Below are positions 7,765 to 64,000 of a stretch of DNA of 64,000 bases, one piece after another. Every line of letters begins with the position of its first letter. Position 1 is the first letter of the stretch. The stretch is from positions 1 to 64,000 of the IMG/VR virus record IMGVR_UViG_3300037092_000015, one strand, 5' to 3'. Source of the DNA: a virus. A model generated the notes under the pieces. The model made no database searches. It saw nothing but the letters and a program-made list of their open reading frames with translations, and had not been told where the DNA came from. The position numbers were made by a program, and so were the translations under genes.

Positions 7765-8215
7765 CTACTTGACTATCATATCTATCAACGTCGCGCCACT
7801 GTAGATAGTGTCCGCCGGCTTCTTGTCCGCTTCGTAGCTATAGCCTTTGAGCAGCGCCAGCACCGCCTCGCTTTCCTTGATAGATGTGCCGCACTGTTTT
7901 GCCCGCTGCTCCGACGCTAATGCTTCACCTTCAAACACTGCCGCTACCACGTTCGGCTGGCCATCCTTGCGCTTCATCCGGGATGCCGCTCGGCGCATCT
8001 TAACTGCCTTTGACTCTGCCTTCTGTTCCTCGCAGGCAAGCTCCTTCATGCTCTGCATTACTGTCTGCCGCGCCAAGTCCACCAAGTCCTCCTTGTCTGC
8101 GTCCCGCTGCCGCGCTAGTTCTACCATCAACGCGCACAGATTCTGCACCGCCGCATCCGGCTTGTTTCGATCTCCAGTGTCGCCAGTCCGGTCGTAGCAT
8201 TCTCGCCGCGCACGC
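7765..8215 (-). pseudogene. N-terminally truncated J-domain-like protein
   Basis: RARRECYDRTGD resembles the end of a J-domain, but the HPD portion and a plausible start are missing; overlaps the SNF2 3' end. Confidence 0.4.
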
Positions 8216-53512: not shown

Positions 53513-53767
53513 TTAAGTTTGCTTGCTGCCGCTGTTCGCTGCCGCCTCTAACGCCCTGTCGTATTCTGCCTCGTCAAACTCTATCCTGCCGTTGAACCTG
53601 TGCACCGGCCCGATACCTACCGCCGCCCGCCACTCATCATGCAACCGCTCACACCGTAGCCGCCTCTGCGTCTTGCTGTTCGGGTTCGGCAAGCTGCACA
53701 GCAACTGCCGAGCTGCCGCGTGTTTGAGGTTCGCTACCTTGCACTCGCGTCTCTGCTTCGGAGTCAT
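53513..53767 (-). CDS. Hypothetical protein
   Basis: ATGA-coupled to TerL. Confidence 0.55.
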   Translation of the reverse strand: MTPKQRRECKVANLKHAAARQLLCSLPNPNSKTQRRLRCERLHDEWRAAVGIGPVHRFNGRIEFDEAEYDRALEAAANSGSKQT

Positions 53768-55155
53768 AGCCTTCCTATCATCCTTTCCTCACCTGGACGT
53801 CCTGCCGACTGGCTCTTCCATGCGCCACTCCCAAACACCGAGGCGGAACTGAATCCGCCAGACACCCCGAGCGCCACTGCCAGATAGCGCAAGGCATCAA
53901 GCGCATGATCGTTCTCCTTCACCGGCTGGTCCTTCGGTTTGTCCGGCGCCCAGACGTAGCTCTCGAACTCGTTTATCAAATTAACGCACGATGGGTCTAC
54001 CGTCAGCCGTGGCCGCCCGTCACCTGCCACCTTGAGCAAGTTCTGTATCTTGTTGATGCCATCAATCACCCTTCCCTTTTCCCCGCGTGCGAACACCTGC
54101 ATGGAGTTCATGTCCGCTATCAGCCCAGCCGCCGCCTCGTCCACCGCTGCGAACTCGTGCCGTCGCCCTTCGGCCTTGAACCACTTGCACGCCTGCCCGA
54201 CTACAACGTTCTGTAGCTGGCCGCGCTCATACCACTCTTGAAACACATGCCAACGACCATCGCTGTCCAAACCTACGTCCAGAATCACAGCCGGGTTCGT
54301 GTAGCCCTCGTCGCACGCTAGCAGCCACCGCTTCATGTCGCCAGGCTGCCGAACCAGCACATGCACCGCTGCGCTGAACCCGTCATACACCGCACCCTCT
54401 GCCGACGCCCACGCGCCCTCGAACAGCCGCTTTCGACGCATTCCAGTCAGGTCGTTCAGCACCGCCATGCGCCGGCTACCGTCCTCTGTCAATATATAGG
54501 TGCATCCATTGCGTATAACGGAACCTTGCGGGTTGCCTTGAGGAAACTCTTTAGCCGCTTGTTCCGGTGTCAGGTTTCGGTAGATAGTAGGGTTGTCGGT
54601 GTGCACTGACGACAGCAACCGAATCTTTCCATCCTTAGCCCGCTTTCGTATCCAGTGCTGACTCCCGCCAGGGTTCGCGTCACCGTAGAGTTGCGGCCAC
54701 TTCACAACCGCCCCGCGACCGCTGCACCGTGTTGCTAAATACTCCCAGTCGTTAAGGGAAAGCTCCTCTGTCTGGCATGTGTAAATAAAATCACGCTCGC
54801 TGCTAAGGATGCGGTCTGGATTGTCCATTCCACCGCACCATATCGTTGACCCGTTCGGGTAGATGAAACGCGACGGGGTTTCCCCTCCGAACGCCTCTAC
54901 TCCGCCGTTGCCATGTGTCACCTTGGCAAACGTCTTTAGCACAGACCCCGCTAGACTAGCCGCAGTCTTGCGCACAATAGCCCCCTGGCAGCCCGGGTAG
55001 GTCATGCACAATATGTGCGCCTTCATACAGCACGGCCACGTCTTGCCAGTGTCCGAAGGACCACAAATAATAACCTCGTGCTCCCTCGACGCCACCAAGT
55101 CGTAAGCGGCCCCGCGTAGTGGCTCCTTCTTTGACTTGACGATGCGCCGCGCCAT
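53764..55155 (-). CDS. terL: Terminase large subunit (PBSX-like)
   Basis: GPSDTGKT, QTEEL, DANPG, DEGYTNP, PVKENDHALDALRY. Confidence 0.93.
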   Translation of the reverse strand: MARRIVKSKKEPLRGAAYDLVASREHEVIICGPSDTGKTWPCCMKAHILCMTYPGCQGAIVRKTAASLAGSVLKTFAKVTHGNGGVEAFGGETPSRFIYPNGSTIWCGGMDNPDRILSSERDFIYTCQTEELSLNDWEYLATRCSGRGAVVKWPQLYGDANPGGSQHWIRKRAKDGKIRLLSSVHTDNPTIYRNLTPEQAAKEFPQGNPQGSVIRNGCTYILTEDGSRRMAVLNDLTGMRRKRLFEGAWASAEGAVYDGFSAAVHVLVRQPGDMKRWLLACDEGYTNPAVILDVGLDSDGRWHVFQEWYERGQLQNVVVGQACKWFKAEGRRHEFAAVDEAAAGLIADMNSMQVFARGEKGRVIDGINKIQNLLKVAGDGRPRLTVDPSCVNLINEFESYVWAPDKPKDQPVKENDHALDALRYLAVALGVSGGFSSASVFGSGAWKSQSAGRPGEERMIGRL

Positions 55156-55739
55156 TACGGAAGGTCCTTCTCCGCCACGCCGCAATCCCACACTGCCGTC
55201 GCCTCAGTGCCATCCGGTGCCTTGACCGACAATGTGCCACCCTCCCGTGGCGGCTCCCGGTATGTCTTTGGGTCATGCGACTTGAGTAAGAATATGGTCA
55301 GGGTGTCGCTAAACTCCCTCACCTTGTCCACGCATACGGGCTTGCCAGCGGCATTCTTCATCCAGATGCGCTTCTCTACCCCGTCTCTTGCCCGTTTAAT
55401 CGCCGCATTTGTTAGCCTGCCGACTGCTAACTTTAAGGCTTGGTCCCATTGCTTAGCGAACAGTTGGCTTTTCTTTCGAGCATTGTAGGCGGTCGGTGGC
55501 GTGATTCCAGCCTCCTCGCACGACGCTGCTACGTTAGGCACGTTAGCTAATGCCGTAAGGAACTTACTTCGCCAATTACCTTTGCCGGCAGCCGTACTTC
55601 GCCGCCTTCCTTTTTTAATTCCTTTAGGCGTAACTTTCGTAAATGCTTCCTTGTCACCCTGCCCCGGCCTTATCGTAGTGCCTACGGGCTTGCCTTTCGC
55701 ATTTAACTTAACCCCATGTTGGCTGCCGTTGCCGTTCAT
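55155..55739 (-). CDS. terS: Terminase small subunit
   Basis: WRSKFLTALANVPNVAASCEEAGI..AYNARK..FAKQWDQA..FSDTLTIFLLK; directly upstream of TerL. Confidence 0.8.
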   Translation of the reverse strand: MNGNGSQHGVKLNAKGKPVGTTIRPGQGDKEAFTKVTPKGIKKGRRRSTAAGKGNWRSKFLTALANVPNVAASCEEAGITPPTAYNARKKSQLFAKQWDQALKLAVGRLTNAAIKRARDGVEKRIWMKNAAGKPVCVDKVREFSDTLTIFLLKSHDPKTYREPPREGGTLSVKAPDGTEATAVWDCGVAEKDLP

Positions 55740-56030
55740 GCGTCGAACACCTTTCCTGCGCTAGCCACGATGCGGCCACGCTTGTCGGTCAGCCTTTTGT
55801 TGTTTGCATTTGTTGTCAGCCCCATATTGCTCCCGTTATCTTTTCCTCCTTACTACCCCAAAACCCCATCGCCCGGTTCCTGGGGCGTGGCCTGCTCGTC
55901 TTGAACTCCTTGGCTATCTGCCGCGTCTGAGCCTCGACGAACACGTCGCCAGACTCCCACCTTATCGGCTCCCCGTTGCGACCGATGTCGGTCTCGCAGC
56001 CTGAAACTTCTAATGTCCTATGCATTGCGC

Positions 56031-56057
56031 TGTTATGTAACTTTGGTTAGGGGTCAT
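56031..56057 (+). other. Left boundary of the cassette array; attI/attG-like simple site
   Basis: ATGTAAC-TTTG-G|TTAGGGGTCAT; GTTAGGGGTCAT (56046-56057) is the exact reverse complement of ATGACCCCTAAC (56624-56635). Confidence 0.55.
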
Positions 56058-56710
56058 AGCAGCACGCCTTGGTTTGCCTCGCGTTCCAGACGGGAGCAGG
56101 CGGTTGCGTAGTGTGTCGGATTCTTCTCGATGCCCACGAAGTTGCGGCGAGTTTTCAGACAGGCCAGCCCTGTGCTTCCGCTGCCCATCCACGGGTCTAG
56201 CACGGTGTCGCCTTCCTTCGTTACGTCGAGGATGATTTGTTGCATCAGTCGCACCGGCTTCTGTGACGGATGCCCTGTCCATTCGTCGCCAGTGTATGAC
56301 GCCGCGACGGTCGAGTTGATCAGGTATTGCCGATAGACTTTGTAGTTCGCCTGACCGTTGCGCTCGTAGATGCGTTCGTATTGGCTTCCGCAGCCTGTCT
56401 TTTTATCCCAGATGTGGATTGCCGTGTAGTCGAGCGGGAAGTCCGCCTTCGCAGACCAGAAGATGAGTTGCCGACATTCTATCAGGCGCAGAGATTCGAG
56501 CAGCCCGTCCTCGTATCCGTAGGCTTCCGCGTGGTAGTCAGGATATGGCGGGTCACAGATTATCACGTCGCACTTCATCGGGAGCATCGTCTGGCAGTCG
56601 CCGAGTATGAGAGTCGCCACGACATGACCCCTAACAAATCGCTTCAGCGAACCGCCGTTGGGCGTCGCAGGCGAGTTCGGGAGCGTTAGCTCGGCGGTCG
56701 CTGAGCTCAT
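56054..56710 (-). CDS. DNA N6/N4 methyltransferase (cassette 1)
   Basis: DPPY, HPSQKP, DPWMGSGST; ATG lies inside attC1. Confidence 0.88.
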   Translation of the reverse strand: MSSATAELTLPNSPATPNGGSLKRFVRGHVVATLILGDCQTMLPMKCDVIICDPPYPDYHAEAYGYEDGLLESLRLIECRQLIFWSAKADFPLDYTAIHIWDKKTGCGSQYERIYERNGQANYKVYRQYLINSTVAASYTGDEWTGHPSQKPVRLMQQIILDVTKEGDTVLDPWMGSGSTGLACLKTRRNFVGIEKNPTHYATACSRLEREANQGVLL

Positions 56711-56719
56711 ACGTTAGAC
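56629..56719 (+). repeat. attC site 1
   Basis: CCCTAAC-AAATC-GCTTCAG...CTGAGC-TCATAC-GTTAGAC. Confidence 0.85.
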
Positions 56720-56867
56720 AGCCGGGCCGCACGTTGGGTTTGCGTTTGGTTTTCGACCAGCGGGCGGCGACCGCAGCGCGGGCTTGCTCGCTGGTGCGGG
56801 CTTTTGCCGCGCCAGTCCCAGCAGACCCTCCGAGTTTTCCGAGCGCGACCGCGGCGGGATTTTTCAT
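56631..56867 (-). CDS. Small basic protein (cassette 2)
   Basis: MKNPAAVALGKLGG..ARAAVAARW. Confidence 0.7.
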   Translation of the reverse strand: MKNPAAVALGKLGGSAGTGAAKARTSEQARAAVAARWSKTKRKPNVRPGCLTYELSDRRANAPELACDAQRRFAEAIC

Positions 56868-57133
56868 TGAACTAAACATTTTGCCGCGCCGAGCGCGTCT
56901 GCCGTGATTCCAATCCGAAGCATATCTTCCGCCGCCCTGCGGGATTTTGGCCCGTAGTAATTTTCCCCCAGGAAGCTGCCAGCCTTGCAGTCAATCCATT
57001 CGATTTGGTCGGGCGCGATTTGCACCCCATCGCGGTCGCAGATTTGTTCGCCTCGAATTTCGACACCCTCACTCACAACCAACATTTTCGTTACCGGATC
57101 AATCCGGTTTTTTATTCTGGCACAGGTATTCAT
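56864..57133 (-). CDS. Hypothetical protein (cassette 2)
   Basis: ATGA-coupled to the next gene. Confidence 0.6.
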   Translation of the reverse strand: MNTCARIKNRIDPVTKMLVVSEGVEIRGEQICDRDGVQIAPDQIEWIDCKAGSFLGENYYGPKSRRAAEDMLRIGITADALGAAKCLVQ

Positions 57134-57172
57134 ATTTTTAAGCAGGGATTAGTTTCCTCTCCCTTTGATTTT

Positions 57173-57496
57173 TTAATAGCGTTCGCCGGGAAGGTCTGGG
57201 GTTGCCCGGAGTTTGGGGCGCGCAAGGAAGGCTTTGTTGCTCGCTTCGCGAGCCGCTTTGCCAGCCTCACGTTGAGCCGCCGCCGCCGATTCTTCTTGCT
57301 GATAGGCGGCCAATTGTGCGGTATGCACACGAGCGCCAACCACTTTACCTTCGGGTGAATATTTGCTTCCGACCAGATGAAACGGAATGGCTTCACCTTT
57401 TGCGGTTTTGAAGCCGCCTTCCGGTTGAAGGATTGCATCTGTCCACTGTCCGCCGCCGGTTTGTCCGGCTGGCACTCTTGGTTCGTCTTCGTTCAT
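57173..57496 (-). CDS. Small protein with an N-terminal EPRVPAGQTGGGQW tag (cassette 2)
   Basis: Tag shared with 57761-58075. Confidence 0.7.
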   Translation of the reverse strand: MNEDEPRVPAGQTGGGQWTDAILQPEGGFKTAKGEAIPFHLVGSKYSPEGKVVGARVHTAQLAAYQQEESAAAAQREAGKAAREASNKAFLARPKLRATPDLPGERY

Positions 57497-57544
57497 TTTT
57501 TCTTTCGTTGGCTTGGCTTACTGGGCCTCGCCCTTTATGCCTGC

Positions 57545-57573
57545 AATATACGCAAGCGATTGCGTATATGCAA
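57545..57573 (-). promoter_or_regulatory. Cassette-internal promoter TTGCAT-17-TATATT with a palindromic operator
   Basis: ATATACGCAA-GCGA-TTGCGTATAT spans the spacer. Confidence 0.7.
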
Positions 57574-57635
57574 ACAAAATCTTCATTTATTTACACACTC
57601 ACAAAACCATTGATTCTATTGACTCAAACCGGCCT

Positions 57636-57735
57636 GCCCAACAAATCGCTGCACGCAATGACCGCCGCATTGGGCGTCATTGGCGAGTTCGGGCATCGTG
57701 GGCGCGGCGTTCATGCGTGAGCTTGGTCGTTGGGC
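57636..57735 (+). repeat. attC site 2
   Basis: GCCCAAC-AAATC-GCTGCAC...GTGAGC-TTGGTC-GTTGGGC. Confidence 0.85.
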
Positions 57736-57760
57736 GCTTAGTCACTCCGCGCCCGATGCG

Positions 57761-58075
57761 TTACGGGTTTTTCGTGTAGTCCTTTTCCCCCGCCTTTTGG
57801 ATATCCTCGAAAAATCCAGGCCGATGCACTCGCGCCACCGGCGAGTTGAACCACGGATTGTTGCGTTGCGCCCAGTCCACGGCCTTCTCCCCAGCGCGCG
57901 GCAGTGCGGCCTGCGCCTCTTTGATGGCTTGCGGAATATGCGTTTGCTCGATGTTTGTCCGCTGAGGCAGGCTTTGGAGTCTGCCGATTTCGGAGCTGAT
58001 GACCGCTCCCGTCTCGGGCATGAATTGCCCGCCTTCCGGCGATCCCGCCGGGACTCTTGGTTGATCTGGATTCAT
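57761..58075 (-). CDS. Small protein with an N-terminal NPDQPRVPAGSPEGGQF tag (cassette 3)
   Basis: CAA-rich leader, tag motif. Confidence 0.72.
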   Translation of the reverse strand: MNPDQPRVPAGSPEGGQFMPETGAVISSEIGRLQSLPQRTNIEQTHIPQAIKEAQAALPRAGEKAVDWAQRNNPWFNSPVARVHRPGFFEDIQKAGEKDYTKNP

Positions 58076-58098
58076 TGTGTGTTTTTGTTGTTCGACGC

Positions 58099-58193
58099 GC
58101 CCAACCAATCACTGGAGCGAATGCAGGCGGGCGCTGCCTGTTCGCAAATTCGGATGTCAGTGGCCGCCTGCATCGCTCAGTTCTGCGTTCGGC
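58099..58193 (+). repeat. attC site 3
   Basis: GCCCAAC-CAATC-ACTGGAG...CTCAGT-TCTGC-GTTCGGC. Confidence 0.85.
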
Positions 58194-58465
58194 ATCTGAA
58201 ATTCCAATTGCCTCTGGACCGGCTTGTCGAACGTTTTCCACGCTGGGTCAGTACAGAAGGGATGCAGGTCCACGAAGGCATTGTAGTAGATCCCCCAGGA
58301 GTGTGTGATGCAGATTCTGAGATTCAGTCGGAAGTTGTATTCTTCCGTAGTCAGGTATCGGTCATCATCGGCCTCCGAATGCCGAACCAGACGCTCCACA
58401 CGAACCGCCGCCAGCCTCTCGGACTCCGGGAGGCTGTTTCGTTTTCGGGCGGCAGTGGTGTTCAT
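58157..58465 (-). CDS. Hypothetical protein (cassette 4)
   Basis: Starts in attC4 and ends in attC3 (PNAELSDAGGH). Confidence 0.65.
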   Translation of the reverse strand: MNTTAARKRNSLPESERLAAVRVERLVRHSEADDDRYLTTEEYNFRLNLRICITHSWGIYYNAFVDLHPFCTDPAWKTFDKPVQRQLEFQMPNAELSDAGGH

Positions 58466-58494
58466 GGCGGCGGTCGGTGAGCTACTTGTTCGGC
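58381..58494 (+). repeat. attC site 4
   Basis: GCCGAAC-CAGAC-GCTCCAC...GTGAGC-TACTT-GTTCGGC. Confidence 0.85.
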
Positions 58495-58799
58495 GCGCGC
58501 AGGCATTCCTCCCACGTCATGCCGCAGACTTTCTTGTAATGCTTTGCCGAGGCCACCAGTTCCCGCGCGGTCTTTCCCGACGCGACGACCTGCTCTCGCG
58601 TGTAGTCGAAGTTCACCGGCTTTCCGTCTTGGTCCTGCCATTGGCCTTCGCTGCGCTCGTTCCAGCCCAGGACCAGGAAGTGGGTTCCGTAGGGAGAAGT
58701 GATGCGCGCCGCGTCGCACTTGAACATGCGGACGAATCGCCGAACCAAGCGCTCCAGACAACCGCCGACGGGCGTCTCTTTTGAAGTCGTAGCGTTCAT
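58482..58799 (-). CDS. Hypothetical protein (cassette 5)
   Basis: Starts in attC5 and ends in attC4 (PNK). Confidence 0.7.
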   Translation of the reverse strand: MNATTSKETPVGGCLERLVRRFVRMFKCDAARITSPYGTHFLVLGWNERSEGQWQDQDGKPVNFDYTREQVVASGKTARELVASAKHYKKVCGMTWEECLRAPNK

Positions 58800-58829
58800 G
58801 TCGGCGGTGTCTGAGCTTGGTCGTTCGGA
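58739..58829 (+). repeat. attC site 5
   Basis: GCCGAAC-CAAGC-GCTCCAG...CTGAGC-TTGGTC-GTTCGGA. Confidence 0.85.
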
Positions 58830-59176
58830 GATGCATTAATGCGCTTGATAATACAGCTTGTGCAGAGCGTTCTCCCTCGTGTGGTCGTTGGCAGACTCCC
58901 CATCCGGCCTGTGTTCTGCGGAAATGCTGCGATGATATTCCTGGCATTGCTCCGCGCTTTGGATAGCTGCTCACGCTTGTTCCCCCCCAGCCTAGGGGCG
59001 ACCAGTGCAGATAGCGCGTCCAGCAGGATTCGCTCTCGCGCTCGGACAGCCGTTCCCAGTCCTGAGACTGATGTTGGTCCGCGGACGATACCATTGCATA
59101 GGTCGGTGATCTGGCTCTCAATCGCAGAACCAAGCGGGTCGAGCGAACTGCCCGATTGCGTCTCAGGTTTATTCAT
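58796..59176 (-). CDS. Hypothetical protein (cassette 6)
   Basis: ATGA couplings inside attC6 and attC5. Confidence 0.6.
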   Translation of the reverse strand: MNKPETQSGSSLDPLGSAIESQITDLCNGIVRGPTSVSGLGTAVRARERILLDALSALVAPRLGGNKREQLSKARSNARNIIAAFPQNTGRMGSLPTTTRGRTLCTSCIIKRINASPNDQAQTPPT

Positions 59177-59215
59177 AGCGTTTTGGCGGGCAGTCGCTCA
59201 CCCGCGGCGTTCGGT
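59124..59215 (+). repeat. attC site 6
   Basis: GCAGAAC-CAAGC-GGGTCGAG...CTCACCC-GCGGC-GTTCGGT. Confidence 0.8.
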
Positions 59216-59472
59216 GGAAGCGGTTGACCGCATTCCTTGCAACAGCTTGGGGCCTTCTGCTTCTCTGCCAGTTCTGCGTCGTGGACCAGCATCGCCGCTG
59301 CCAACCTTCGGCTGGCCATCGTGAAACGGCGCCACAAATATTCTTCGTGCGTTTGCAGGCACGGCCTTGGTCTGTTCGTATGCGCCAGCGCCCATGCATC
59401 CCTCCACCAAACGCACCGAACCAATCGCGGCAGCGAACCGCCGACTGGCGTTGTTGCAATAGGGGTGTTCAT
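59173..59472 (-). CDS. Hypothetical protein (cassette 7)
   Basis: Starts in attC7 and ends in attC6; CKECG. Confidence 0.65.
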   Translation of the reverse strand: MNTPIATTPVGGSLPRLVRCVWWRDAWALAHTNRPRPCLQTHEEYLWRRFTMASRRLAAAMLVHDAELAEKQKAPSCCKECGQPLPPNAAGERLPAKTL

Positions 59473-59508
59473 TGGTGGTTATCGCCGCCGCTCAGCTTGT
59501 CGTTGGGG
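59415..59508 (+). repeat. attC site 7 (degenerate)
   Basis: ACCGAAC-CAATC-GCGGCAG...CTCAGC-TTGTC-GTTGGGG. Confidence 0.7.
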
Positions 59509-59535
59509 CGCTTAGTCACTCCACGCCCAGTTACG

Positions 59536-59811
59536 CTATTGCGCGGTGTTTTCACACGCCGGTAGTGCCGATGTGTCGGCGACTTTCTTGATGTCCCCAA
59601 GCTTGGCTCGTACGTCGTCAATGTGCAGGCATTCCGCCAGGTTGCATCCAGCTTGGTCTGCTACCGGCACGGCTAGGTTGCCGTTGCAGGCGTCGTTTCC
59701 AGGAGTCGCATCGTGGAGTATTCCGACGATGGACTTCACGTAGTATCCGGGCGGCACGATGCGGAGCACGCGGTCCCCGTTCTTTGCTTCTCTTCCGTTT
59801 GCGTAGTGCAT
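59536..59811 (-). CDS. Small SH3-like hypothetical protein (cassette 8)
   Basis: MHYANGREAKNGD..GILHDATPGNDACNG..ECLHIDD. Confidence 0.75.
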   Translation of the reverse strand: MHYANGREAKNGDRVLRIVPPGYYVKSIVGILHDATPGNDACNGNLAVPVADQAGCNLAECLHIDDVRAKLGDIKKVADTSALPACENTAQ

Positions 59812-59837
59812 ACTTATGTTCTGTGTTTACCGTCGCG

Positions 59838-59932
59838 CCCTAACCAATCACTAGAGCGAATGCAGGCGGGCGCTGCCTGTTCGCAAATGGGTTTGTCAGT
59901 GGCCGCCTGCATCGCTCAGTTCTGTGTTCGGT
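59838..59932 (+). repeat. attC site 8 (near-identical to attC3)
   Basis: CCCTAAC-CAATC-ACTAGAG...CTCAGT-TCTGT-GTTCGGT. Confidence 0.85.
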
Positions 59933-60123
59933 GATGTGTTTTCCACGGTCACATACCCAAGGAATGCCATCGTTTTCCCGCAACAGCGAGGCATGGGAGC
60001 ATCTGCCCCGAGATAGGCAGGCACATATTCCTCTCGCCCACACTGTCGGCAGTAGTGCTTGAAGCATCTCACCGAACGAGCCGCGTCAGCCAACGGCGGG
60101 GTTACGCTTTTAGTGTTCTTCAT
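59896..60123 (-). CDS. Small Zn-ribbon protein (cassette 9)
   Basis: CRQCG..PRCCGKTM; ends PNTELSDAGGH in attC8. Confidence 0.7.
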   Translation of the reverse strand: MKNTKSVTPPLADAARSVRCFKHYCRQCGREEYVPAYLGADAPMPRCCGKTMAFLGYVTVENTSPNTELSDAGGH

Positions 60124-60162
60124 ACGTCCTTTGGCCCGCCGTGGCTGCGCTCTGTGTTATGC
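60071..60162 (+). repeat. attC site 9
   Basis: ACCGAAC-GAGCC-GCGTCAG...CTGCGC-TCTGT-GTTATGC. Confidence 0.82.
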
Positions 60163-60246
60163 CCTACCATCGGAAGGTTCCCGTATCGTCGATTTTGCGG
60201 GTGAGCCACCAGACCACGATCATCAGTATTATCAGTTCCATATGGT

Positions 60247-60441
60247 TTATTTATTCCCTCTGAGCAGGCGGTAGGCGCGGATCGCTACAGCGTCCCACAC
60301 GGCTACTGATTCGCTTGGCAGGTCTCTGAATTTACAGAGGGGGCGCCCCCAGATTGATTTTGGCTGGCTCAGCATTTCTTTCCGGCTAGCGTTGTAGAGT
60401 TTGATAGCCAGTGTTCGGGCTTCATCTAGTTTTTGTTTCAT
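60247..60441 (-). CDS. Hypothetical protein (cassette 10)
   Basis: ATGA coupling. Confidence 0.6.
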   Translation of the reverse strand: MKQKLDEARTLAIKLYNASRKEMLSQPKSIWGRPLCKFRDLPSESVAVWDAVAIRAYRLLRGNK

Positions 60442-60671
60442 GGCAGTAGGTCGTTGAGGCGCTTCTGGAGCGCGGTTGCCAGCACGCTAACCTTTGTCTG
60501 TTGCTCTGAGGCTGGCAGGTTTTCGATTTCGTAGCACAGGTTCAGCGCGGCGCTTCTGGCGTCCCCGATTCCCCGGTGCAGTTTGATTTCTTTCGCAGTC
60601 GTAGCCGTGGCCACCTGCGAGAGTTCCAGATACAGGCTGTTGATAGTGTCGAGTTCCATAGGCATAACCAA
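60438..60671 (-). CDS. Hypothetical protein (cassette 10)
   Basis: SLYLELSQVATATTAKE..CYEIENLPASEQQTKVSV. Confidence 0.65.
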   Translation of the reverse strand: MVMPMELDTINSLYLELSQVATATTAKEIKLHRGIGDARSAALNLCYEIENLPASEQQTKVSVLATALQKRLNDLLP

Positions 60672-60720
60672 TCACGCCACCGAACCGGCTCCGCGCCGGT
60701 CGGTGAGTTCCTTGTTATGC
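60662..60720 (+). repeat. attC site 10 (59 bp)
   Basis: GCATAAC-CAATC-ACGCCAC...GTGAGT-TCCTT-GTTATGC. Confidence 0.85.
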
Positions 60721-60950
60721 CTGCACCCCAGGACGTGAGTGATGGTGCCGCCATTCGGGCCGGGGTCGTTGAGGCACTCGGGGCACTGCACGGCCATTTT
60801 GTCCGCGCAGGTTTTTCCCGGCGCATATGTCGCGCAGTTCGAGCATTCACCGAGCAGATACCATCCGCACCAGCACTTTGCTGCCGCTGGCAGGTTGCTC
60901 AGCATGTCCATGTATTCTTGTTGGTCAGAGTTAAACATCGCAGCGCTCAC
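60672..60950 (-). CDS. Cys-rich hypothetical protein (cassette 11)
   Basis: CWCGWY..CSNC..CPEC; ends in attC10. Confidence 0.65.
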   Translation of the reverse strand: MSAAMFNSDQQEYMDMLSNLPAAAKCWCGWYLLGECSNCATYAPGKTCADKMAVQCPECLNDPGPNGGTITHVLGCRHNKELTDRRGAGSVA

Positions 60951-61630
60951 AATTCATCCGGTTCGCAGGCGTTGTCGAAGTGCCGCTTGTCCTTCTCGAC
61001 GCCGATAAATTTACGACCAGTCCGCAGGCAGGCGATTCCCGTGCTGCCGCTGCCCATGTATGGGTCTAGCACCGTTGCCCCGACCGGCACGCCAACTTGT
61101 TCCAGACACCACGCCATCAGCGCGACCGGCTTTTGGTTGCTGTGGATTCGCGGCTCGTCCTTTTCCTTCGCTTGCGCACCGTTCCAATAGCGCGTTTTCA
61201 GCCGCAGAACGCCGTCCTGGTTTGTCCACGCCGTCTCGCCGTCGGCCTGGTCGTTGCTTGGGATGCCTTCGCGCTTGTCCCATATCAGCCACCGTGAGGA
61301 GTTCGGCAGGCGGTTCGCGTAGTGATTCGCGCCCCACAGCACCACAATTGGATAGCCGAGCCACGGGCGCGGGTCGAACGGCTTGTCATCGCCCATGATT
61401 GCCTCGCCATCAGTGCCGAGTTTCACGCCGCCTTTACGCGCTCCGTGGCAGTAGGCGATTCCATACGGCGGGTCGCTGATTAGCGCGTCCGCGTCTATCC
61501 ACGGAAGCTCCAGACAGTCGGCATTGATTAGTCGGCAGTCTCCGATTGTGACCCCTAACAAGTCGCTGCACGCAATGCCCACCGCGTTCACGGTTTGCTT
61601 GCAATCGGGTGCTGTTGGCGCGGTGGTCAT
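60947..61630 (-). CDS. DNA N6/N4 methyltransferase, C-terminus apparently truncated
   Basis: DPPYG, HSNQKP, DPYMGSGST; ends abruptly FDNACEPDEL; ATG in attC11. Confidence 0.85.
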   Translation of the reverse strand: MTTAPTAPDCKQTVNAVGIACSDLLGVTIGDCRLINADCLELPWIDADALISDPPYGIAYCHGARKGGVKLGTDGEAIMGDDKPFDPRPWLGYPIVVLWGANHYANRLPNSSRWLIWDKREGIPSNDQADGETAWTNQDGVLRLKTRYWNGAQAKEKDEPRIHSNQKPVALMAWCLEQVGVPVGATVLDPYMGSGSTGIACLRTGRKFIGVEKDKRHFDNACEPDEL

Positions 61631-61650
61631 GCGTGAGCTAGTCGTTATCC
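61553..61650 (+). repeat. attC site 11
   Basis: CCCTAAC-AAGTC-GCTGCAC...GTGAGC-TAGTC-GTTATCC. Confidence 0.85.
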
Positions 61651-61965
61651 TTCATGCTGTGTAGGTATTCCGTGGTCAGGGTGCTGGTATTCTGGATACT
61701 TGCGGCCCTTGACAGGCTCTCCGCGCAGCGGAGCTCCGCACTGCTCCATACATGCCACTCCAGTTGCTGTGATCTGTCGGATTTCATGCAGCGCCTTGTC
61801 GTCGCCGTGCCCTGTTACCCACGCATGGCGGGCATCGTTGCACAGTTTTTCGATGATGAGCAGCCACTCGGCTACACAGTGTTGATGATCGGGCCACTTC
61901 TGTTCTTGGTAGGCGCGTTCGCCTTCGATTGCATGTCTTACGTCTGCATCTATATGTCGATTCAT
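61645..61965 (-). CDS. MazG-like (all-alpha NTP pyrophosphohydrolase-like) protein, last cassette
   Basis: ERAYQEQKW..EWLLIIE..ALHEIRQITATGVACME. Confidence 0.65.
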   Translation of the reverse strand: MNRHIDADVRHAIEGERAYQEQKWPDHQHCVAEWLLIIEKLCNDARHAWVTGHGDDKALHEIRQITATGVACMEQCGAPLRGEPVKGRKYPEYQHPDHGIPTQHEG

Positions 61966-61966
61966 A

Positions 61967-62057
61967 GGATAACGAGTCGGTTCAGCGACTGCCGGGTTCG
62001 CGTTTGGGTTTCAGTTCGGGAGTCAGCGGCCCGGCATCGCTGACCTCTTTGTTCCGG
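61967..62057 (+). repeat. attC site 12
   Basis: GGATAAC-GAGTC-GGTTCAG...CTGACC-TCTTT-GTTCCGG. Confidence 0.82.
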
Positions 62058-62368
62058 GCTGCCGATCCGGAACCTTTGCATGTGGGGCATTTCCGCCCTG
62101 GCTCAGCTTGTTTGTTCGTCGCGCCGGAATGAGCGCCGCCAGCCTCTTCCTTGGCTGCCGCAAGTTCACCCTGCCTCAGCCGAACGCTAGCCGTGATTGA
62201 CTGCCGCATGGTCCAGCCGTCCTCGTCGCGGCCTCGCGCCTTCCAAAATCGCCGCGCACCGGCCCTCACCGAAGCAGCCATCTGACGCAGCGGCTCACCG
62301 GTCGGATGCTCAAGCACCGTCTCCCAGTCTCCCTGCTGAATCGTTGCTAGATTTAGACCGTCGTTCAT
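61982..62368 (-). CDS. Hypothetical protein reading into attC12
   Basis: CPTCKGSG then ARNKEVSDAG from the attC. Confidence 0.55.
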   Translation of the reverse strand: MNDGLNLATIQQGDWETVLEHPTGEPLRQMAASVRAGARRFWKARGRDEDGWTMRQSITASVRLRQGELAAAKEEAGGAHSGATNKQAEPGRKCPTCKGSGSAARNKEVSDAGPLTPELKPKREPGSR

Positions 62369-62617
62369 CGCGTCACTCCATCCACGCTATTATCCCACTG
62401 TCGTATTGCACCACAGTCACAAGACTCACTTGGCCGCATATCCTACAAACCACCTTTGCCTTACCGCCGCCGGCCCCGATCTTGAAATACCGATCTACCA
62501 CCACAGCGTCATTGTGTCCGCACCGTCTGTTTCTTCTTGGCCAGTAGTAGCTACACAATACGAAGAACGATACAACGCAAGCCGACGGCAGTAACAGTAT
62601 CACCCAGTCAAGAATCG

Positions 62618-62809
62618 TCACTTGGCACCTCGCGATTCCTTTTCCGCCTTGTGCTCGACCGGCTTCCGTATCCCAGCTTTCGGTTCCGTGAACGCCGTGC
62701 ACTGGCTTCCGTGGTTGCTGACCGCCGGCTTGTTAAAGACGCAGCACCAACCCGCAATGCCAGTGTCCAGCGCATCCCAGTAGTAGCAGGTAGCACAGGT
62801 TGCGCTCAT
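62618..62809 (-). CDS. Small Cys-rich protein
   Basis: CATCYYW..GWCC..QCTAF. Confidence 0.6.
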   Translation of the reverse strand: MSATCATCYYWDALDTGIAGWCCVFNKPAVSNHGSQCTAFTEPKAGIRKPVEHKAEKESRGAK

Positions 62810-62897
62810 GCTGGTGTGTTATTTTTCATGCTTACACTTTTATGAAACGCCTAGTCACTACTTGGTTTGGAAACCATGTCATTCCATCCGGCCGGGT

Positions 62898-63149
62898 CTA
62901 GCAAGCCTGCCTATATTTCTCTTCATTTTCTTGCCTCGCTAGTAAAGTAGCTGCGACCACCTGTAATCTTGAAACATCCTGCTCTACCATCATCCGCAGC
63001 GCGTCCTTGGCCGCAGTTCGCGCCTTGCCAGCCCCGCGCCCCGGCAGCCGCGTCACCGCTTGCAGCGCCAGCTTCGCCAGTTCCAAGTGCAACTCCTGAC
63101 GGCGGATACGGTCCTTGCTGGCGCGGGGCGTCTGCATGTCAGTCAACAC
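62898..63149 (-). CDS. Hypothetical protein
   Basis: Operon packing. Confidence 0.5.
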   Translation of the reverse strand: MLTDMQTPRASKDRIRRQELHLELAKLALQAVTRLPGRGAGKARTAAKDALRMMVEQDVSRLQVVAATLLARQENEEKYRQAC

Positions 63150-63948
63150 TCTCGACCAAGTGCTTGAAGAAGCTTCGGTTCAGAACCCGGAACGTCGCCA
63201 AATGGCCTGTGCCTAGCTTCTCGACATATTGTTTGGAAGCCCAGTAGGCCAGATTGTGCACAGCCGTGTCCGGTTTCACCTTGTCAATCAATGCACTGTG
63301 ACCGTTAGCAACCACCGCCTGCATTAACTCGTCGCATGTGAAAGGTTTTTCAAACTTGAGCACCGCCCGCTTCATTGCGGCCCCAAGCGTGCTAGGAGCG
63401 TCCAACAAGTCCTCAGTGCTTCGCACAGCAGCTTGAATCTTTACCGCGTCAGGCTTCGGCGTCCATTTCTGCACGACAGTCACCGCGCCTTCTGCTACAA
63501 GTAGCGGCTTTGTTTTCGACCAGTAACCGTAACCAGCCGACCACAACTTACCGTCCCGCTTCTGCCGATTGGCCCAGCAACTCACTAGGCTCTTGCTGAA
63601 CCCGGAAGCCTTTCGTATGGCCCGCAACTTCATAGGGTCCGGCATAGATTTGACTATGCCCCACAGAACGCCGTCCGTACTACCGGGCGCTGGCACTGGC
63701 TTCCTGTTGCCGTTTCCGCCGTTCCTTGAAGCAGGCTTTGACAACCGCGCACCGTGCACGGTTGAAGTTCTTTTAGGCGCAACCGGCATGGTTGGCTGGT
63801 CTGGCATATTGCATCCTGACTCCCCTTCCCGGAACGCCTCCAGTTCCTTGATTAGTGCCGTGAACCGTTCAACCCTCGCCCGTAGCGCCGCGATGGTGTT
63901 GTTAATTGCCGTCATCATGTCTTGTGCCCTTTCGGATTGGTTGGCCAT
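63139..63948 (-). CDS. Putative DNA-binding protein (two winged-helix-like segments)
   Basis: N-terminal coiled coil; LRAIRKASGFSKSLVSCW; FTCDELMQAV..NLAYWASKQYVEK. Confidence 0.55.
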   Translation of the reverse strand: MANQSERAQDMMTAINNTIAALRARVERFTALIKELEAFREGESGCNMPDQPTMPVAPKRTSTVHGARLSKPASRNGGNGNRKPVPAPGSTDGVLWGIVKSMPDPMKLRAIRKASGFSKSLVSCWANRQKRDGKLWSAGYGYWSKTKPLLVAEGAVTVVQKWTPKPDAVKIQAAVRSTEDLLDAPSTLGAAMKRAVLKFEKPFTCDELMQAVVANGHSALIDKVKPDTAVHNLAYWASKQYVEKLGTGHLATFRVLNRSFFKHLVESVD

Positions 63949-64000
63949 GCTTCCGCCATTGTAGCCAACGGCTGCCCTGGCGCAACATAATTCTGCTTTG

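Follow-up and report, generated by a model that had tools for sequence, protein, structure and literature searches.

A run of 12 attC sites lying between minus-strand genes of a peat phage, at 56627-62059 of the window (the whole 64,000-nt stretch of DNA analysed here), is an integron-type cassette array whose contig carries no integrase, i.e. a CALIN, and forms part of a phage accessory-gene operon. Its cassettes have an inverted, 'attC-first' format. The best explanation, which we regard as probable, is a phage CALIN with attC-first cassettes and frame-locked junctions, in which termination and re-initiation of translation inside attC are inferred. The host of the phage is probably a Verrucomicrobiota bacterium. 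The record (75.5 kb, 81% complete) gave no match to PF00589 (integrase), and because neither intI nor attI lies beside the array it is filed as a CALIN and not as a complete integron.

The sites are listed below; letters a-l correspond to attC1-12 of the earlier note, whose interval (58099-62057) left a and b outside. R1 is a covariance model built from the coding strand of the window sites, frame 0 is the frame that reads the AAC of the R' box as Asn, and protein tails are given up to their stop codon.

attC a, 56627..56721, minus strand: R1 score 83.6 bits; the ATG of methyltransferase ORF 56054-56710 (Pfam PF01555) lies in the spacer in the context GTATGA, giving a latent frame-0 TGA; crossed in frame 1 by an 82-aa ORF (56631-56879) that is open through the entire attC
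attC b, 57634..57737, minus strand: R1 score 72.7 bits; no ORF in or out; a frame-0 stop at +18 would yield the tail PNDQAHA; then comes an A/T-rich spacer, with the next gene beginning at 57496
attC c, 58097..58195, minus strand: ORF 58157-58465 crosses with AAC=Asn and stops at +30 (PNAELSDAGGH); the plus-strand box GTTCGGC (58187-58193) is one end of a cassette-precise joint
attC d, 58379..58496, minus strand: ORF 58482-58799 crosses, tail PNK; ORF 58157-58465 has its ATG in the loop, 16 nt past the stop; box 58488-58494 is the second end of the joint; RNA fold -56.7 kcal/mol, z -4.7
Complete attC-first cassette, 58187..58487, minus strand: body of attC d plus ORF 58157-58465
attC e, 58737..58831, minus strand: ORF 58796-59176 ends PNDQAQTPPT; its TGA and the ATG of ORF 58482-58799 overlap as ATGA
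attC f, 59122..59217, minus strand: ORF 59173-59472 ends PNAAGERLPAKTL and overlaps, as ATGA, ORF 58796-59176, which starts in this site and has conserved homologues
attC g, 59413..59510, minus strand: upstream ORF stops ahead of the box; ORF 59173-59472 has its ATG in the loop, overlapping a latent frame-0 TGA
attC h, 59836..59934, minus strand: 92% identical to c; tail of ORF 59896-60123, PNTELSDAGGH; start of the next gene outside attC, at 59811
attC i, 60069..60164, minus strand: a 25-aa ORF stops directly ahead of the box; ORF 59896-60123 has its ATG in the loop, overlapping a latent frame-0 TGA
attC j, 60660..60722, minus strand: short, 63 nt; tail of ORF 60672-60950, HNKELTDRRGAGSVA; ORF 60438-60671 has its ATG within the R'' box (GTTATGC), 6 nt past that stop
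attC k, 61551..61652, minus strand: the TAA of ORF 61645-61965 forms the last 3 bases ahead of the crossover (GGATAA/C); methyltransferase ORF 60947-61630 has its ATG within the 5' arm, with an alternative TTG at the R'' box
attC l, 61966..62059, minus strand: ORF 61982-62368 crosses as RNKEVSDAG..., stop at +69; the next ORF starts at 61965, 1 nt beyond the R'' box

Identity and orientation of the attC sites

AAC and GTT were invariant in 12/12 sites, and the RYYYAAC and GTTRRRY box pairs were kept. The sites fold as an imperfect hairpin with an unpaired spacer of 6 nt versus 5 nt, 14 covarying pairs and two 1-nt bulges in the 3' arm of the coding strand, while the loops bring site length to 61-118 nt. 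When applied to the aadA1 attC of plasmid R100, R1 recognized the strand opposite aadA1 with 42.2 bits (E = 2e-11) but the aadA1 strand with only 5.7 bits. We also examined a chromosomal integron of Verrucomicrobiota (MAG G002), where intI (371 bits, TIGR02249) adjoins 12 attCs; R1 scored these at 42-63 bits on the intI strand, the ORFs there lying mostly on the opposite strand. Spacer lengths and bulge positions of the phage sites equal those of attCs beside intI in the likely host phylum. Across the phage arrays, 40/40 inter-attC intervals code on the strand that R1 recognizes. As R1 matches the strand opposite aadA1 and the intI-side strand, the phage genes are carried by the bottom strand of attC, which bears out the earlier note's inference that the recombinogenic bottom strand is also the mRNA-like strand.

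In described sites the AAC of R' is on the bottom strand, with extrahelical bases near L'' (Nivina 2016, PMC5027507), and the folds of the window sites agree with both placements. Judged indirectly, from the cassette-precise joint and the divergence of protein tails described below and with no enzyme assay, the crossover sits in the R' box that the ORFs cross (AA/C on the bottom strand, G/TT on the top strand). On the mRNA-like strand, a cassette begins at the C of the R' box (RYYYAA/C), continues through its own attC and the ORF body and ends at the next RYYYAA. This departs from the canonical layout, in which the ORF is on the attC top strand and attC comes after it: every window gene is on the bottom strand, and attC therefore precedes its own ORF. 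No terminator-like sites were found on the minus strand inside the array, which favours co-transcription.

Incoming frame, borrowed stops and natural reshuffling

At c, d, e, f, h, j and l, seven ORFs without a stop of their own cross the R' box with AAC=Asn and end in the neighbour's attC; their shared frame and all seven tails listed above had been described before and were reproduced. A frame-0 stop was present in 12/12 window sites, +6 to +69 past AAC. We then took a census that covered 11 phage or metagenome arrays with 51 sites, calling the crossing frame as the longest open frame reaching AAC. Frames 0, 1 and 2 were used in a ratio of 25 : 2 : 4 in the 31 crossing cases (binomial p = 9e-8), and in a ratio of 20 : 1 : 2 with the window excluded (p = 1.6e-7). 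The incoming frame is thus not random in other arrays (a random one would have refuted the earlier claim), and as far as genomic comparison goes the pattern is confirmed beyond the window. The additional arrays were located with window-derived patterns and the model, and they therefore represent one attC family.

A frame-0 stop lay inside attC in 50/51 sites, compared to 34 and 33 for the other two frames. In bacterial MAG attCs of the same family, such a stop was present in only 10/27 sites, and in 2/12 of those beside intI (Fisher p = 2e-9). Essentially every phage-type attC carries a frame-0 stop ahead of or at its own ATG. One site (L002 327-435) is an exception, having no stop in frame 0 over 312 nt, and an exception to the frame rule is site a, which is crossed in frame 1 and lies outside 58099-62057. 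At some 40% of sites no ORF crosses, the ORF there having its own stop or a TAA in the box, and the borrowed stop is therefore an option and not a rule. The proposal that any reshuffling would still terminate translation holds for 50 of the 51 sites and fails at the one that lacks the stop.

Natural variants supported the idea that C-terminal tails depend on the neighbouring cassette. Copies of the protein of ORF 58482-58799 that were 99-100% identical carried four tails, PNK, PNDQAHA, PNAELSDAGGH and PNDRSEQ..., two of which are the exact frame-0 reading of the window's b-type and c/h-type attCs; the b-type tail DQAHA was found on variants P0001, P0026 and P0027. In the alignment of this protein family (e family; three clusters, each at least 90% identical within), 18/18 full-length sequences diverged directly past the box Asn (PN, or SN in P0031). 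Furthermore, a contig from a peat run (X4) joined 58186 to 58488, skipping 301 nt, such that exactly one cassette (58187-58487) was absent; seven ambiguous bases at the joint (GTTCGGC) fit either side, and the joined form encodes the tail of P0025. By the testimony of these variants, reshuffling is real and site-specific.

The leader at site e, MNATTSKETPVGGCLERLVRR, was invariant among 99-100% identical copies. Among e-family copies at least 90% identical, the attC-encoded leader varied too, always joining at RLVRR, and contigs also broke at the R'' box of site b. Leader variation and R'' breaks together imply that attC body and ORF are not permanently linked, and a simple R'-only model does not explain this exchange of attC body versus ORF.

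That the hairpins are not integron sites at all, and instead are RNA processing or regulatory stem-loops whose modularity stems from homologous recombination between conserved repeats, is a reading to which we give hardly any credence. The contig has no integrase, the hairpins lie on the mRNA-like strand and are highly stable as RNA, and breakpoints also occur at the R'' box and within loops, all of which would suit such elements; they would not account for the R1 match to the bona fide aadA1 attC (E = 2e-11) and to attCs beside intI, the 14 covarying pairs, a cassette missing exactly from box to box, or divergence of 18/18 e-family sequences past the box Asn.

Starts within attC and stop-start geometry

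Start codons had been placed inside eight attCs, and we recovered in-frame ATGs in a, d, e, f, g, i, j (in the R'' box) and k. Starts lay outside attC at b, c (ATG +30), h and l (+8); the gene downstream of c most likely starts at ATG 58075 (+30), and its paralogue 57173-57496 has the same beginning. The ATGA overlap of stop and start noted at attC5 and attC6 was found at e and f, and latent frame-0 TGAs overlap the ATG in the same way at a, g and i. In the census, 33/51 sites had an attC-internal ATG whose ORF extends at least 40 codons beyond attC. The distance from the frame-0 stop to this ATG was -4 (ATGA) in 14/33 and 0 to +16 in another 14/33, so that 28/33 fell between -4 and +16, inside the limit of roughly 20 nt taken for termination-reinitiation coupling. 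At the GTT box these ATGs were distributed 14, 6 and 13 over frames 0, 1 and 2; as the GTT-box frames vary, the ATG tracks its own ORF. By crude frame calls, an attC-internal in-frame ATG was present in 24/41 ORF frames versus 17/82 control frames.

Alternative starts exist for several cassettes (a, GTG +15; k, TTG -2; e, ATG +18; d, GTG -12; i, GTG +5), and the true start of the a, d, e, g, i and k cassettes could be a GTG, TTG or ATG at or directly past the R'' box; for the methyltransferase ORFs (a, k) a GTG or TTG start at the R'' box cannot be excluded. Taken to its limit, this would mean that attC-internal starts are an annotation artefact and the open attC frames a by-product of high G+C and shared ancestry. 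Apart from the alternative starts at a, k, e, d and i, this could draw on methyltransferase homology that begins only past the R'' box, on gene calls that start some e-family members at MFKCD, and on the open frame through a half-attC in L001, which is probably spurious because a promoter-like TTGACA-17-TATGGT lies between the half-attC frame and a later ATG. However, ORF 58796-59176 has no alternative start, the loop ATG of site f being its only in-frame start codon. In the e family, conservation continues upstream of the internal Met25 and through the R'' box, Met25 is Leu in two homologues (P0010 and P0017), and an attC-less homologue (L024) still begins 13 codons upstream of LVRR. The excess of in-frame ATGs over control frames, and an ATG frame that follows the ORF frame despite differing GTT frames, likewise speak against an artefact, which we regard as quite improbable. 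To the extent that reading frames and homologues can decide, an attC-internal start is required for at least two cassettes, those of site f and of the e family. If true, attC-internal starts would give N-terminal peptides such as MNATTSKETPVGG... or MNKPETQSG....

The loop ATGs have neither a Shine-Dalgarno (SD) sequence nor the A-rich leader typical of independently initiated genes, SD use being low phage-wide, and they lie at the edge of hairpins of -34 to -57 kcal/mol, the ATG itself in the loop and its 5' flank in the GC-rich stem. Translational coupling is inferred from the stop-start geometry, the lack of SD and A-rich leader and the hairpin context, in the absence of translation data; RNA contigs (run X19) touch parts of the region and cannot show expression. 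It is possible, if unlikely, that the frame rule and the frame-0 stop merely safeguard termination by preventing read-through fusions, with attC ATGs initiating independently and without re-initiation. The near-universal frame-0 stop even at uncrossed sites, the position of the ATG in a single-stranded apical loop and the general rarity of SD sequences in the phage are compatible with this. However, the spacing of stop and ATG is tighter than termination needs (ATGA in 14/33, at most 16 nt in 28/33), the 5' flank of the ATG is locked in a GC-rich stem, and ATGA and GTGA overlaps also occur at attC-less junctions of the operon (60438-60441 and 60947-60950).

Under the preferred reading of coupled, frame-locked junctions, a ribosome completing cassette n would melt the 5' arm of the hairpin that attC forms in the mRNA and terminate at the frame-0 stop, which adjoins or overlaps (ATGA) the loop ATG. 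The same ribosome would re-initiate at this ATG, and the 3' arm would then be translated as the N-terminal leader (...GGSLERLVR) of cassette n+1. Since the sole inter-cassette junction is frame-locked, any cassette order would yield terminated, closely packed and probably coupled genes.

Implications and relation to known systems

We lean, though only slightly, towards the view that peat Verrucomicrobiota phages have in common a private pool of cassettes in the inverted attC-first format, shuffled by host integron integrases, in which attC has four roles. If true, one element of ~100 nt would serve as recombination site, universal terminator, re-initiation site and N-terminal leader; the recombination site would have co-evolved with the reading frame, and promoterless genes without ribosome-binding sites would be plug-and-play in any order. 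Cassettes could then reshuffle without breaking translation of the operon, the coupling itself being inferred.

Termination-reinitiation coupling is familiar from ATGA overlaps and from hairpin opening as in the MS2 coat-replicase pair. As in these classical cases, stop and start here overlap or adjoin, and by inference the start region would lie in a structure unfolded by the upstream ribosome; unlike them, the element doubles as a mobile recombination site, and coupling would therefore be portable between unrelated genes.

Phage CALINs with 2-3 sites, for which the usual cassette orientation was described, have been reported by Qi et al. 2023 (PMC9892861). The present array shares with them RYYYAAC...GTTRRRY hairpins between small promoterless phage genes, DNA methyltransferase cassettes and the lack of an integrase nearby, but it has 12 sites, all genes are on the attC bottom strand, ORFs start in attC and a frame-locked junction supplies their stops.

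Two further systems are reviewed in PMC8876359. According to this review, ORF-11/ORF-18 of attI1 (Hanau-Bercot et al. 2002) spans the crossover and takes an in-phase stop from the inserted cassette, and its termination beside the cassette start leads to translational coupling. This is a single short leader ORF with its own SD in canonical orientation, whereas here every attC x attC junction is involved, with full-length cassette proteins, the opposite attC strand and the next start codon within attC. The same review describes the attC stem-loop as a translational barrier that short ORFs inside attC relieve (Jacquier et al. 2009). Common to that system and, by inference, to the phage array is an mRNA attC hairpin that hinders ribosomes and that is opened by translation entering attC, aiding the next cassette; the Jacquier system concerns a top-strand transcript and small dedicated ORFs in attC, whereas in the phage the ribosome would be both delivered and taken up by the ORFs of the cassettes, in a pattern that other arrays conserve.

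In fused cassettes of class 1 integrons (PMC8876359, PMC4670013), frames likewise run across boundaries and hybrid ends depend on the neighbour. These fusions are fixed and have lost attC, whereas here the attCs are intact and the boundaries still recombinogenic. Phage CALINs and attI1 ORF-11 coupling were thus already known, and it is the inverted, frame-locked attC format that appears to be new.

An inverted array of attC sites

Between 56627 and 62059 we found twelve imperfect palindromes of 61-118 nt, the attC sites a to l, in a window whose minus strand carries all of its genes. Every site starts with a RYYYAAC box (R′) and ends with a GTTRRRY box (R′′), and alignment of the coding strands revealed one common fold: a paired box followed by an unpaired spacer of 6 nt against 5 nt, and then a stem whose 3′ arm carries two one-nucleotide bulges, and a variable loop. 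Compensatory changes were present at 14 of the 20 pairs of this fold. Two of the cassette genes encode N6/N4 DNA methyltransferases and the rest are small ORFs without a Pfam family. No tyrosine recombinase was detected in the 75.5-kb IMG/VR virus record containing the window and no integrase on the phage contig, and megablast of 53764-64000 against deposited phages gave no match. One flanking feature orients the array region in the direction of transcription:

53764-55191, minus strand: terminase gene, just downstream of the array region

No terminator-like sites were observed on the minus strand inside the array, and promoter-like sites in the window were not more frequent than in shuffled sequence. 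Two sigma-70-like matches, themselves no commoner than in shuffles, lie at 57545-57640 (minus strand) in an A/T-rich spacer just downstream of attC b and ahead of gene 57173-57496, and may act as an internal promoter.

We then analyzed the polarity of the sites with a covariance model built from the coding strand of the window attCs. The model scored 65-85 bits on the coding strand of the window and at most 18 bits on the other strand. At the aadA1 attC of plasmid R100, the strand opposite aadA1 matched with 42.2 bits (E = 2e-11), compared to 5.7 bits on the aadA1 strand itself. Furthermore, in a Verrucomicrobiota MAG contig (G002:C60) where a bona fide integron integrase (371 bits, cut-off 265) adjoins 12 attCs, the matches fell on the strand of the integrase gene, the bottom strand in a canonical array, and the ORFs lay mostly on the opposite strand according to codon usage. 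The layout of the phage attCs also agrees with the published definition of a bottom-strand AAC in R′ and extrahelical bases near L′′ (PMC5027507). The genes of the phage are thus carried by the bottom strand of attC, as the earlier note had claimed. The codon-usage score placed coding on the model-matching strand in 40 of 40 inter-attC intervals from seven phage or metagenome arrays; this score replaced a comparison of the longest ORFs of both strands, which was uninformative at this G+C.

Arrays of the same attC family were also present in Verrucomicrobiota MAGs (L052, at G002:C60:28000-44655, L037, L038 and L034), including Pedosphaera sp., and one of them adjoins a full integron integrase. 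They offer a clue to the phage host and to the enzyme that shuffles the cassettes.

A fixed incoming frame with neighbour-supplied stops

The earlier note had proposed that upstream ORFs cross the crossover in the frame that reads the AAC of R′ as Asn (frame 0, the others being frames 1 and 2) and end within the neighbour's attC, and every one of its sequence statements was reproduced. ORFs crossed c, d, e, f, h, j and l with AAC as Asn and stopped 6-69 nt further on, still within the attC of the neighbour; the stop and the next start overlapped as ATGA at e and f. A frame-0 TGA overlapping an ATG is likewise present, unused, at a, g and i. At k, the TAA of the upstream ORF forms the last three bases before the crossover (GGATAA/C, with the slash at the crossover), and at b, g and i the upstream stop precedes the box.

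The same small hairpin, GGGCGCGGAGTGACTAAGCGCCC, follows both ORFs that stop before b and g (57738-57760 and 59511-59535); the copies are 83% identical, abut the R′ box and supply stops (TGA and TAA) in two frames. A hydrophobic ORF of 25 codons that is missing from the annotation, MELIILMIVVWWLTRK... (60168-60245, minus strand), has its TAG immediately before the R′ box of i.

An exception was found outside the interval 58099-62057 that the claim covered: ORF 56631-56879 crosses site a in frame 1 and stays open over the full length of the attC. A second box-like sequence, CCCAAC, precedes the R′ box of a by 20 nt (56700-56745) and encodes Pro-Asn in this ORF. The use of frame 1 follows from this 20-nt offset, which suggests a secondary 20-nt insertion. 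The ORF overlaps the methyltransferase start by 75 nt.

Further arrays were collected from IMG/VR contigs and one metagenome contig by two pattern scans and the covariance model, all from one attC family, and 51 sites were analyzed. These arrays had almost no sequence in common besides attC, either mutually or with the window, and tblastn of the window cassette proteins against them found almost nothing shared; shuffling can therefore not be read from those loci. The incoming frame was non-random. True small ORFs at e, f and h were misclassified when incoming ORFs were called with a codon-score threshold, and we therefore also counted, free of annotation, the longest open frame reaching AAC. 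Frames 0, 1 and 2 were used in a ratio of 25 : 2 : 4 (binomial p = 9e-8), with another 6 using the TAA of the box, and of 20 : 1 : 2 without the window (p = 1.6e-7). A stop between the boxes was present in frame 0 at 50 of the 51 sites, compared to 34 and 33 in the other frames, at a median offset of +33 nt. As a control, bacterial MAG attCs of the same family had a frame-0 stop in only 10 of 27 cases (2 of 12 beside the integrase), a significant difference (98% vs 37%, Fisher p = 2e-9). Thus, the frame-0 stop is a property of the phage format rather than of attC itself, and it separates phage-type from bacterial attCs of one family. The difference in ATGA was only borderline (17/51 vs 3/27, p = 0.054).

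On a second phage contig (L001), an attC with 94.6% identity to site a is split into halves that lie at opposite ends of the contig's array, the 3′ half (loop-L′′-R′′) upstream and the 5′ half (R′-L′-loop) downstream (7777-7824 and 2775-2836). The arrangement resembles a circle cut open in the loop, and the ATGA module is kept in the 5′ half.

Starts inside attC and inferred translational coupling

In-frame ATGs inside attC, also claimed in the earlier note, were confirmed ahead of the ORFs at a, d, e, f, g, i, j and k. The starts at c, h and l lie outside attC, behind A-rich leaders like those of other independently initiated phage genes. Among the 51 sites, 33 had an internal ATG opening an ORF of at least 40 codons past attC; defining the downstream gene as the longest open frame had produced spurious frames at e and f, and the analysis was redone. 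The internal ATG was positioned at -4 relative to the frame-0 stop (ATGA) in 14 of these 33 and at 0 to +16 in another 14. Their ORFs occupied all three phases at the GTT box (14, 6 and 13), showing that each ATG is matched to its own ORF and that only the AAC junction is frame-locked.

ORF 58796-59176 has no other in-frame start codon, and its protein is conserved. Among relatives of the 58482-58799 protein (the e family), conservation continues across the R′′ box; two homologues have Leu in place of the internal Met, and a homologue without attC (L024) starts 13 codons ahead of LVRR, with an AGGA motif in front of its start. A start at the R′′ box is still possible for the methyltransferases and for some other cassettes. 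Initiation at the loop ATGs would yield the N-termini MNATTSKETPVGG... and MNKPETQSG..., and neighbour-supplied stops would yield C-termini such as ...PNK or ...PNDQAQTPPT.

Neither a Shine-Dalgarno sequence nor an A-rich leader precedes the loop ATGs, which occupy the apex of RNA hairpins with folding energies of -34 to -57 kcal/mol. In each hairpin, the tail of the preceding ORF is encoded by the 5′ arm and the leader of the following ORF by the 3′ arm, so that a terminating ribosome would have opened the stem exactly at the next ORF start. Such a ribosome would unfold the stem and then re-initiate at the loop ATG. Together, the data show an inverted, "attC-first" format with a frame-locked junction and stops supplied by the neighbour; termination-reinitiation between cassette ORFs is inferred from the features of the loop ATGs and their hairpins. 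Operon junctions without attC overlap too (ATGA at 60438-60441, GTGA at 60947-60950), and coupling thus appears to be a general habit of this operon. Both of these are gene pairs within single cassettes, the first of a 77-aa and a 64-aa ORF, the second of a methyltransferase and a 92-aa Cys-rich ORF. Contigs from a metatranscriptome run (X19) covered parts of the array; as contigs cannot show transcription, strand or translation, they were not taken as evidence.

Natural reshuffling and relation to known integron systems

Evidence for tail variation came from protein sequences and one contig. The 58482-58799 protein has 22 relatives, with a conserved core from RLVRRFVRMFKCD to ...LR(S/A)PN and unrelated sequences past the Asn. 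Within a cluster of 99-100% identical copies the leader MNATTSKETPVGGCLERLVRR was invariant, whereas the tails varied with the neighbour, as predicted, and ended after K, DQAHA, AELSDAGGH or DRSEQTARAAAADDQSISEPR. Read in frame 0, the window's b-type attC gives DQAHA and the c/h type gives AELSDAGGH. A contig from peat run X4 joins 58186 to 58488, creating the AELSDAGGH form, and the joint removes exactly the unit delimited by the GTTCGGC boxes of c and d; 7 bases at the joint can be assigned to either side. The crossover thus maps to the very box that is crossed by the ORFs, and the tails are shown to depend on the neighbour. Leaders also differed among e-family copies at least 90% identical, and some contigs break at the R′′ box, indicating some exchange on this side too; this could occur by top-strand recombination or by homologous exchange, neither of which was resolved. 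A viral scan with the e-family profile recovered only a distant homologue (L023), with no attC match there.

Other junctions were also seen in peat contigs. In run X3, 37 foreign bases replace 58467-58766 (mosaic junctions, 58466-58767 region), and in runs X3, X5 and X19 contigs break within 57596-57644, both at the R′′ box of b and at 57596-57604 in the A/T-rich spacer that follows it. One homologue (P0040) matches ORF 58796-59176 with 100% identity over 88 residues, and the similarity ends immediately behind ...FPQN (CAGAAC, ~58926-58932), again an in-frame Asn. The 95 nt between this box-like sequence and attC e (58832-58932) may be a remnant or a unit without an ORF.

Integron cassettes are usually viewed as ORF-then-attC units whose expression declines the further they lie from the Pc promoter, an effect due in part to the blocking of ribosomes by attC hairpins. 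In the phage array this recombination site is used in reverse, with its sequence tuned to the genetic code. A fixed junction frame, a near-universal stop and an adjacent start would make gene expression robust to shuffling, and would explain how the phage keeps a long promoterless accessory array functional despite gene exchange. Its accessory genes, including the two DNA methyltransferases, may serve anti-defence. Gene callers will place both ends of these cassette genes wrongly, the C-terminal tails of cassette proteins are context-dependent, and the design could be copied for synthetic shufflable operons.

In the literature, of which our coverage was incomplete, so that a prior description is not excluded, we found no account of inverted, frame-locked phage cassettes, nor of all-bottom-strand genes combined with attC-internal starts and a conserved incoming frame. 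Phage CALINs (attC clusters lacking an integrase) and ORF-11 coupling are already known; it is the inverted, frame-locked format that seems to be without a precedent we could find. Published phage CALINs include methyltransferase cassettes and have 2-3 sites in the usual orientation (PMC9892861), whereas the array described here has 12 sites and its genes on the bottom strand. attC hairpins hinder ribosomes unless short attC-internal ORFs are translated, and translational coupling is known for ORF-11 of attI1, which spans the crossover and is terminated by an in-phase stop that the inserted cassette provides (PMC8876359). Like ORF-11, seven of the window ORFs span the crossover and have their stop supplied by the neighbouring cassette.
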